IMG/VR virus record: IMGVR_UViG_2778261030_000015
From: a virus
Taxonomy: Duplodnaviria > Heunggongvirae > Uroviricota > Caudoviricetes
Length of the DNA stretch: 9,554 bases
Reading direction: 5' to 3' (one strand)
The notes beneath the pieces were generated by a model that was not told the origin of the DNA, did no database searches, and worked only from the letters and a program-made list of their open reading frames with translations. Position numbers and translations under genes: made by a program. Positions 296 to 371 of the stretch are shown here, piece after piece; position 1 is the stretch's first letter; each line of letters begins with the position of its first letter.

Positions 296-371
296 TGGAC
301 CACCACCGGGGACTCGAACCTCGCACACTCAACTTAAAGGGTTGACGCTCTTTCCTGATGGCTAGTGGCGG
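296..371 (-). tRNA. Non-canonical tRNA-like gene (anticodon loop CCUUUAA, UUU/Lys if read canonically); possible variant or pseudo-tRNA
   Basis: A 76-nt reverse complement ending in CCA has a 7-bp acceptor stem (one G-U), perfect anticodon stem TCAAC/GTTGA and T-loop TTCGAGT. It also has C at position 1, C33 instead of U33, a weak D-stem and an A-C mismatch in the T-stem. Confidence 0.45.

Follow-up and report, generated by a model that had tools for sequence, protein, structure and literature searches.

A Lys-type tRNA-like gene with a damaged D stem in the argN slot of a lambdoid prophage

The tRNA array and its prophage surroundings

The window (the whole stretch of DNA analysed, 9,554 nucleotides from IMG/VR record IMGVR_UViG_2778261030_000015) covers the early-right region and the late start of a lambdoid prophage, in reverse orientation. 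Its genes are, in order, cI-like repressor, cro, ydaT, replication O/DnaT-like and P, DUF1627, Paa/AdfO, hok/sok, DUF968, RusA and Q, followed by three tRNA or tRNA-like genes (Table 1). Given the position of Q, this tRNA array opens the late operon. Bases 190-470 show 100% identity to 11 PPompW and Stx2a-phage records of Shiga-toxin-producing E. coli, in which the middle gene of the array is labelled tRNA-Lys.

Table 1. Features of the tRNA array and of the adjoining late-operon start (positions are those of the window)
Feature	Position	Strand	Basis or remark
Strong intrinsic-terminator-like hairpin, GGCUCGC-UUUU-GCGGGCC then UUUUUU	175..192	minus	Directly after argO; scan
argO-type tRNA-Arg(UCU), third gene of the array	208..282	minus	ARAGORN Arg(tct); Rfam tRNA 68.1 bits
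Middle tRNA-like gene, 76 nt	296..371	minus	ARAGORN tRNA-Lys(ttt); Rfam RF00005 28.2 bits; alignment to Stx-phage argN and phage Evi
G3 and U70 of the middle gene	369 (G3), 302 (U70)	minus
Anticodon TTT of the middle gene	338..336	minus
C33 of the middle gene	339	minus
C32 of the middle gene	340	minus
T12 deletion in the middle gene	between 361 (C11) and 360 (C12)	minus
ileZ-type tRNA, anticodon CAT	373..448	minus	ARAGORN Met/Ile2(cat); Rfam tRNA 72.5 bits
Sigma-70 promoter-like site, TTGCAA-17-TATTAT	458..486	minus	Consensus scan only
Palindromic GC-rich hairpin between Q and the tRNAs	554..583	minus	T-rich stretch follows on the minus strand; scan reported the plus strand
pR'-like promoter match	660..632	minus	Upstream of the palindromic hairpin; consensus scan
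Late antiterminator Q gene	644..1339	minus	Pfam Phage_antiter_Q E = 1.3e-90; named Q in an identical prophage

The ileZ-type gene is the first of the array, its CCA lying 1 nt from C1 of the middle gene; in two other loci (L126 and L127) RefSeq labels this gene tRNA-Ile. The sigma-70 promoter-like site ends approximately 10 nt upstream of ileZ and is a candidate promoter of the three-tRNA unit, as a consensus match rather than a site of demonstrated function. From lambdoid gene order, the palindromic hairpin and the promoter match upstream of it may be tR'- and pR'-like. The three tRNAs are probably co-transcribed. Plus-strand ORFs at 156..365 and 358..546, which lie over the tRNAs, are regarded as spurious.

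Several other features of the window deserve mention. Bases 1-118 are non-homologous and nearly pure poly-C (61 C in bases 56-130), and homology to PPompW_14040 and an O55:H7 prophage starts at base 119, which corresponds to the edge of the ISEc20 insertion in PPompW_14040. The poly-C stretch most likely arose during sequencing or assembly, as an artefact where an IS copy had broken the contig. In PPompW_14040 the ISEc20 insertion lies directly after the tRNAs, and no lysis genes are annotated between Q and the terminase genes. An ORF for a hok/gef-type toxin (3579-3791, minus strand) overlaps the sok antitoxin RNA (3732-3881, Rfam 103.9 bits), and the span 3579-3881 is a prophage-borne type I toxin-antitoxin pair. 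The ORF at 4070-4828 (minus strand) is named as the adherence factor Paa/AdfO in an identical prophage and matches a periplasmic solute-binding fold in Pfam (SBP_bac_11, E = 5.5e-34). The Rfam sRNA STnc100 is found downstream of the arrays of related prophages (L009 2265-3380, with up to four tandem copies; L002 1395-1606; L003 555-741); in the window it gives only a weak, sub-threshold match (11.1 bits, 163-251).

Fold, scores and annotation of the middle gene

From the ARAGORN drawing and the sequence, the middle gene reads 5' to 3' CCGCCAC-UA-GCCA-UCAGGAAAG-AGC-G-UCAAC-CCUUUAA-GUUGA-GUGUG-CGAGG-UUCGAGU-CCCCG-GUGGUGG-U-CCA. An earlier note on this DNA had described a 76-nt gene with C1, C33, the loop CCUUUAA and a perfect anticodon stem, all of which are present. 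The anticodon stem has 5 bp (UCAAC/GUUGA) and encloses the loop C32 C33 U34 U35 U36 A37 A38. The D stem was said to have only two Watson-Crick pairs, and this was borne out (G10-C25 and C11-G24). The acceptor and T arms had been called good; both stems do form, but the acceptor stem consists of six Watson-Crick pairs, the first being C1-G72, plus G3·U70, and the T arm (CGAGG/CCCCG) has four of five pairs with an A51·C63 mismatch, neither irregularity having been noticed. The TTCGAGT loop is normal. The discriminator is U73, also unmentioned earlier, and the CCA is encoded.

U8, A14, G18G19, a TTCRANY T loop, a 7-bp acceptor stem and a 7-nt anticodon loop, all canonical in tRNA, are thus found in the middle gene, and a D stem of three to four pairs and U33 are not. 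An unconstrained RNA fold gave no cloverleaf (z-score -1.36). Two alternative readings of the anticodon arm, a shifted anticodon (U-turn at U34, giving the ochre anticodon UUA) and a register-shifted stem, were rejected, as the sequence offers no alternative closing pairs.

ARAGORN, which the earlier note had proposed as a check, called the gene tRNA-Lys(ttt). The Rfam score was 0.8 bit below the gathering score of RF00005 (29 bits), with an end-to-end alignment (E = 1.2e-4 for an 81-base search, 292..372). The chance that a mis-drawn but conventional fold would score highly, which the note had allowed for, did not materialize: the fold had been drawn correctly and the score is marginal. Rfam runs on the whole window and on 371 bases gave no RF00005 match at the middle gene, only tRNA-Sec at 15.7 bits; the missing match in these longer runs is a filter or clan-competition artefact.

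Compared with its relatives the window copy scores poorly. Rfam tRNA scores were 53.2 bits for a relative with U33, 44.4 for the intact C33 allele of 77 nt, 43.0 for Stx-phage argN, 37 for phage Evi and 28.2 for the window copy. The ARAGORN detection limit, expressed as a percentage of the default threshold, was 122 for the U33 relative, 120 for host lysT, 112 for the intact allele and 102 for the window copy. The cloverleaf of the window copy has an energy of -15.1 to -15.4 kcal/mol, about 8 above the minimum free energy (MFE), compared with -22.3 kcal/mol and 2.7 above MFE in the intact allele, and in the U33 relative the cloverleaf is the MFE structure. Deletion of T12, which leaves the D stem with two pairs, together with C70T costs 16 bits and approximately 7 kcal/mol of cloverleaf stability. 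The window copy therefore carries a lesion that disrupts a helix kept in intact orthologues and lowers the model score, as expected of a pseudogene.

RefSeq annotation follows the same division. The 77-nt allele is tRNA-Lys (RefSeq/PGAP) in every row among the matches listed, and the 76-nt allele is blank in every row among the matches listed; in the one record viewed in detail it is a blank between annotated tRNA-Ile and tRNA-Arg. RefSeq likewise leaves blank the rows at 96.1% identity, a value that would fit a three-substitution T8C variant.

Descent of the gene and variation in its slot

The array ileZ-argN-argO occupies the same position in Stx phages (record annotations), and ileZ and argO of the window are nearly identical to those of Stx2a_F349. 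The middle gene lies between ileZ and argO downstream of Q, as argN does, and shows 84.4% identity to O157 argN. Alignment to Stx-phage argN, also proposed earlier, revealed a common scaffold, with differences mostly in the anticodon arm and at the T12 gap. Shared with argN of Stx and lambdoid phages are the slot, the CCGCCA(C/U) acceptor with C1-G72, the D loop AUC(A/G)GGA(A/U)A, the T arm, U73 and the encoded CCA; the T arm and 3' flank of Stx2a_F349 argN are identical to those of the middle gene. In contrast, the anticodon arm is UCAGC-CUUCGAA-GCUGG in argN and UCAAC-CCUUUAA-GUUGA in the middle gene, so that the Arg anticodon UCG is replaced by UUU. Relative to argN, the middle gene has lost C35 and G36, which are part of the Arg identity set, has C33 in place of U33 and lacks T12. 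An altered Arg isoacceptor, one of two identities put forward in the earlier note, is therefore correct by descent (argN slot, and argN acceptor, D-loop and T-arm scaffold).

The 77-nt prophage tRNA-Lys annotated by RefSeq in ileZ-Lys-Thr(UGU)-Gly(UCC) arrays is identical to the middle gene except at T12 and C70, and shares C33, the CCUUUAA loop and A51·C63. It also has C1-G72 and U73. The window copy differs from it in lacking T12, in having G3·U70, in being followed by argO rather than Thr-Gly, in its lower Rfam score and in having no PGAP annotation. The CCUUUAA arm also occurs in phage Evi, whose D stem (GCUC/GAGC) is intact. C1 was present in all 47 unique alleles aligned, and C33 with the CCUUUAA loop is common to essentially all Lys-type alleles sampled. 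From this distribution, C1, U73, A51·C63 (also in Stx2a_F349 argN and Lys-type alleles) and the D-loop sequence are traits of the scaffold, and C33 and the UUU anticodon traits of the Lys-type clade, with only the D-stem defect specific to the allele of the window. The suggestion that the gene is a decaying pseudo-tRNA consequently keeps one of its supports, the two-pair D stem produced by an allele-specific T12 deletion, but loses C1, C33 and CCUUUAA, which are inherited.

The window array (ileZ-Lys*-argO) is a mosaic. From the 3' acceptor strand of the middle gene (GGUGGUGG, the source of G3·U70) onwards, the sequence agrees with Stx-phage argN-argO; the 5' two-thirds of the copy derives from the Lys-type allele. 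By sequence comparison, the middle gene is almost certainly a T12-deleted mosaic derivative of a widespread Lys-type tRNA built on the argN scaffold. No paper on the Lys-type argN allele or its deletion variant was found in the literature searched.

Over the 47 unique alleles, cloverleaf pairs filled 96.4% of cells, compared with 28-53% for control structures slid by one to three columns on the same alignment of mutually related sequences. Changes on both sides were seen at five pairs, and three compensatory changes separate the Arg and Lys clades, 7:66 (U-A to C-G), 27:43 (C-G to U-A) and 30:40 (G-C to A-U). The compensatory changes and the extent of pairing indicate that the Lys-type clade arose under selection for a folded tRNA.

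Prophage loci were sampled with the 3' end of ileZ as anchor, 124 in all. ARAGORN called 66 of their middle slots Arg(tcg), 21 Lys(ttt) and two Arg(ccg) or Arg(tct), and the other 35 (approximately 28%) were uncallable. The argO gene was almost always intact and called in the same loci. The 35 uncallable slots represent several independent wrecks, in which the anticodon arm is scrambled or deleted or the T loop is lost.

Degenerate classes of the middle gene recur in the ileZ-anchored loci L004-L123 (for example, allele CCGCCATTAGCTTATCAGGAAGAGCAGACGACACGATAACAGGG...), and acceptor ends are retained. The commonest single allele in the sample is itself degenerate, its anticodon arm being replaced by unrelated sequence and its T loop lost; a further class has suffered deletion of the anticodon arm.

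The Lys-type allele normally resides in the ileZ-Lys-Thr(UGU)-Gly(UCC) array, upstream of lysis genes. In this native array Thr(UGU) is identical to host thrU at 76 of 76 positions and Gly(UCC) to host glyT at 73 of 75 (L008 7349-7499, L127 2580-2733), and the pair looks like a captured host thrU-tyrU-glyT operon minus tyrU. Among 125 Lys-type copies examined from IMG/VR, 68 were the main 77-nt allele, 25 carried combinations of C4T, T8C and C11T, including loss of the invariant U8, and 17 had the T12 deletion (15 in argO context and two in Thr-Gly context). C33 was present in all but one copy.

Two relatives with U33 were found in IMG/VR, L009 (loop CUUUUAU) and L356 (8-nt loop CUUUUUAU). In L356 (IMGVR_UViG_3300012089_000052, minus strand) the T arm and acceptor match at 3553-3577, and ARAGORN gives a four-base anticodon (tttt); the 8-nt loop may reflect a plain insertion or a form akin to a frameshift suppressor. 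Stand-alone 82-nt relatives of the scaffold, CCGTCAC...GTGACGGTCCA, with an aberrant, extended anticodon region, occur in L349, L354, L352, L355, L360 and others; ARAGORN calls on these are inconsistent, Val(aac) or Tyr(ata).

Lys-type alleles are carried by 798 of 5426 complete E. coli genomes (approximately 15%). The exact 77-nt allele is present in 279 of the 5426, and the exact 76-nt allele of the window in 222, belonging to several serotypes. The middle gene is not a chance match, since hundreds of prophages carry it in this slot. None of the four isolated phages with a full-length Lys-type allele (606R7, 689R5, PhiR47_1 and Evi) gave a gapped 76-nt match. A contig search with the 17-mer TCAACCYTTTAWGTTGA placed 2 of 121 matches listed inside a tRNA; the others were chance matches in unrelated taxa.

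Possible function and likeness to known systems

The middle gene is probably a decaying copy giving little or no working tRNA, and loss of function and co-transcription are the parts of this reading that go beyond what is observed. A single transcript, started at the promoter-like site of the array or forming part of a Q-dependent late transcript, would carry the ileZ, middle and argO genes, and normal tRNA processing enzymes would cut the three RNAs apart. Working rare-codon tRNAs for AUA and AGA would come from ileZ and argO, and the middle product would fold poorly and add little or nothing to decoding, as a decaying passenger. In addition to the lesion itself, decay is favoured by the contrast between a middle slot that is uncallable in 35 of 124 arrays and an argO that is almost always called, by the blank that RefSeq leaves at the 76-nt allele, by the lack of a gapped 76-nt match in the four isolated phages, and by a prophage lineage with an IS insertion right after the array and no annotated lysis genes from Q to terminase (PPompW_14040).

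Other observations argue against decay. The 76-nt allele is identical in 222 genomes, and the occurrence of the same deletion in two array contexts indicates that it has persisted through recombination. The score falls short of the Rfam threshold by less than 1 bit and the gene is still detected by ARAGORN. The D stem may form three pairs if A23 is bulged, and the remaining arms are undamaged, as are G18G19, the T loop and the encoded CCA.

A working but inefficient tRNA-Lys(UUU) is an unlikely alternative, but the strongest of those considered. Such a tRNA would form the L-shape with a D stem of 2-3 bp, be charged by LysRS through its UUU anticodon and contribute modestly to decoding of AAA and AAG in lytic growth. 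The anticodon, especially U35, is the main identity element for LysRS, and A73 is another Lys identity element. In the middle gene UUU is followed by A37 in a 7-nt loop, so the main LysRS determinant would be present, but U73 replaces A73 and the gene is unrelated to bacterial tRNA-Lys genes. Recognition by ArgRS is unlikely from the identity rules since C35 is lost, though A20 is kept. The claim that the gene is Lys-UUU as read accordingly finds backing in the ARAGORN call and in the RefSeq label of the intact 77-nt allele, and is weakened by U73 and the lack of relationship to lysT. A weak tRNA-Lys is further favoured by the full-length Rfam alignment, the perfect anticodon stem, U36-A37-A38 as in host lysT and the wide distribution of the identical allele.

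However, the D stem is broken, the cloverleaf lies well above the MFE, and the T stem has its A·C mismatch. C33 in place of the near-universal U33 removes the U-turn uridine, which is expected to lower rather than abolish ribosomal performance. There is also no obvious benefit, as the host has many tRNA-Lys(UUU) genes, five of them in one 1.4-kb stretch, and the slot is degenerate in more than a quarter of sampled arrays.

The Lys-type argN allele, possibly including the window copy, might be a tRNA-Lys(UUU) that host anticodon-arm nucleases (PARIS AriB, PrrC and RloC) cannot cut, sustaining Lys decoding once host tRNA-Lys is destroyed, as the tRNA-Lys of phage T5 does; this reading is improbable. 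Within U36-A-A-U-C|A41 of E. coli tRNA-Lys(UUU), AriB cleaves between positions 40 and 41; cleavage is abolished by U39A and reduced by A41C, and the enzyme also seems to recognise U16-U17 in the D loop (PMC12409363). T5 escapes PARIS by means of its own tRNA-Lys, mutated at positions 39 and 41 (PMC12409363). PrrC cuts 3' of U33 (PMC2610378). The window tRNA keeps the host anticodon but has U36-A-A-G39-U40-U41, with GUU at 39-41 against UCA in the host, C-A in place of U16-U17 of the host, and C33 in place of the U33 after which PrrC cuts; by sequence, the Lys-type allele has neither site. In addition, C33 is fixed in the Lys-type clade, only two U33 relatives being found in IMG/VR, and Lys codons are not rare, making codon supplementation a weak rationale.

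Against evasion, tRNA-Thr(UGU) is the main P2 Old target (PMC12445682) as well as a prime target of PARIS AriB, and the partner Thr(UGU) of the native array, being identical to host thrU throughout, keeps the target of both. It is ruled out as a PARIS- or Old-resistant variant for the same reason. More than half of the Lys-type copies in E. coli are versions left without annotation by RefSeq, a pattern more suggestive of drift than of selection, and in the window copy the D-stem defect comes on top. The fuller proposal, in which the argN-scaffold tRNA-Lys(UUU) with C33 and G39-U40-U41 would be a lambdoid counter-defence tRNA, proof against AriB and possibly PrrC and RloC, in approximately 15% of complete E. 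coli genomes, and the T12-deleted allele would still be processed and either work or act as a decoy, is slightly less probable again.

G3·U70 is the major determinant for AlaRS. It was found in 3 of 47 unique alleles, the window allele, Evi and Stx2a_F349 argN (L002 3104-3180, L003 1607-1683), most alleles having G3-C70, and alanine mischarging through it is possible on sequence grounds. Nevertheless, it is highly improbable that the middle product serves as an AlaRS substrate putting Ala at Lys codons, since C1-G72, C2-G71 and U73 are a poor AlaRS context, or as a spacer for processing, its acceptor/T-arm minihelix directing RNase P to cleave between ileZ and argO, a role to which the single nucleotide between the ileZ CCA and C1 and the acceptor ends kept by strongly degenerate alleles would be suited but against which the loss of the T loop in such alleles argues.

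The finding is real but fairly ordinary. It is mainly a point of annotation, in that ARAGORN-based pipelines and GenBank records label the window gene tRNA-Lys and RefSeq omits it; with a damaged copy favoured, the prophage should not count as a supplier of lysine tRNA. More generally, a single tRNA body, fitted with an Arg(UCG) anticodon arm in some cases and a Lys(UUU) one in others, fills the argN slot in lambdoid and Stx prophages, and roughly one copy in three shows visible decay. Given such variety, the usual blanket claim that ileZ-argN-argO serves virulence genes with rare-codon tRNAs calls for caution. As a temperate-phage tRNA that may escape defence nucleases targeting tRNA-Lys, the intact Lys-type allele is a candidate that could be tested cheaply.

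The host lysT family of tRNA-Lys(UUU) has the same anticodon as the middle gene and the same loop positions 32 and 34-38 (C, UUU, A, A), but differs in U33 versus C33, A73 versus U73, G1-C72 versus C1-G72 and the anticodon stem; as only 47 of 79 aligned positions are identical, a captured host lysT gene is ruled out. A closer parallel in kind is tRNA recruitment or remolding by anticodon change, of which the E. coli tRNA-Arg(UCU) converted to a Thr(UGU) decoder is reportedly an example. Here too one body carries two anticodons (Arg UCG and Lys UUU) in homologous slots, although, unlike single-point remolding, the whole anticodon arm differs, with compensatory changes in the stem.

Phage T5 tRNA-Lys(UUU) likewise has the anticodon of the host target and substitutions at 39-41 around the AriB site (PMC12409363). 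It is unrelated in scaffold, whereas the middle gene comes from a temperate lambdoid prophage, has GUU rather than the ACC of T5 at 39-41 and a damaged D stem, and its resistance and function are putative. The prophage argN tRNA family remains the known system from which the middle gene descends and like which it works.
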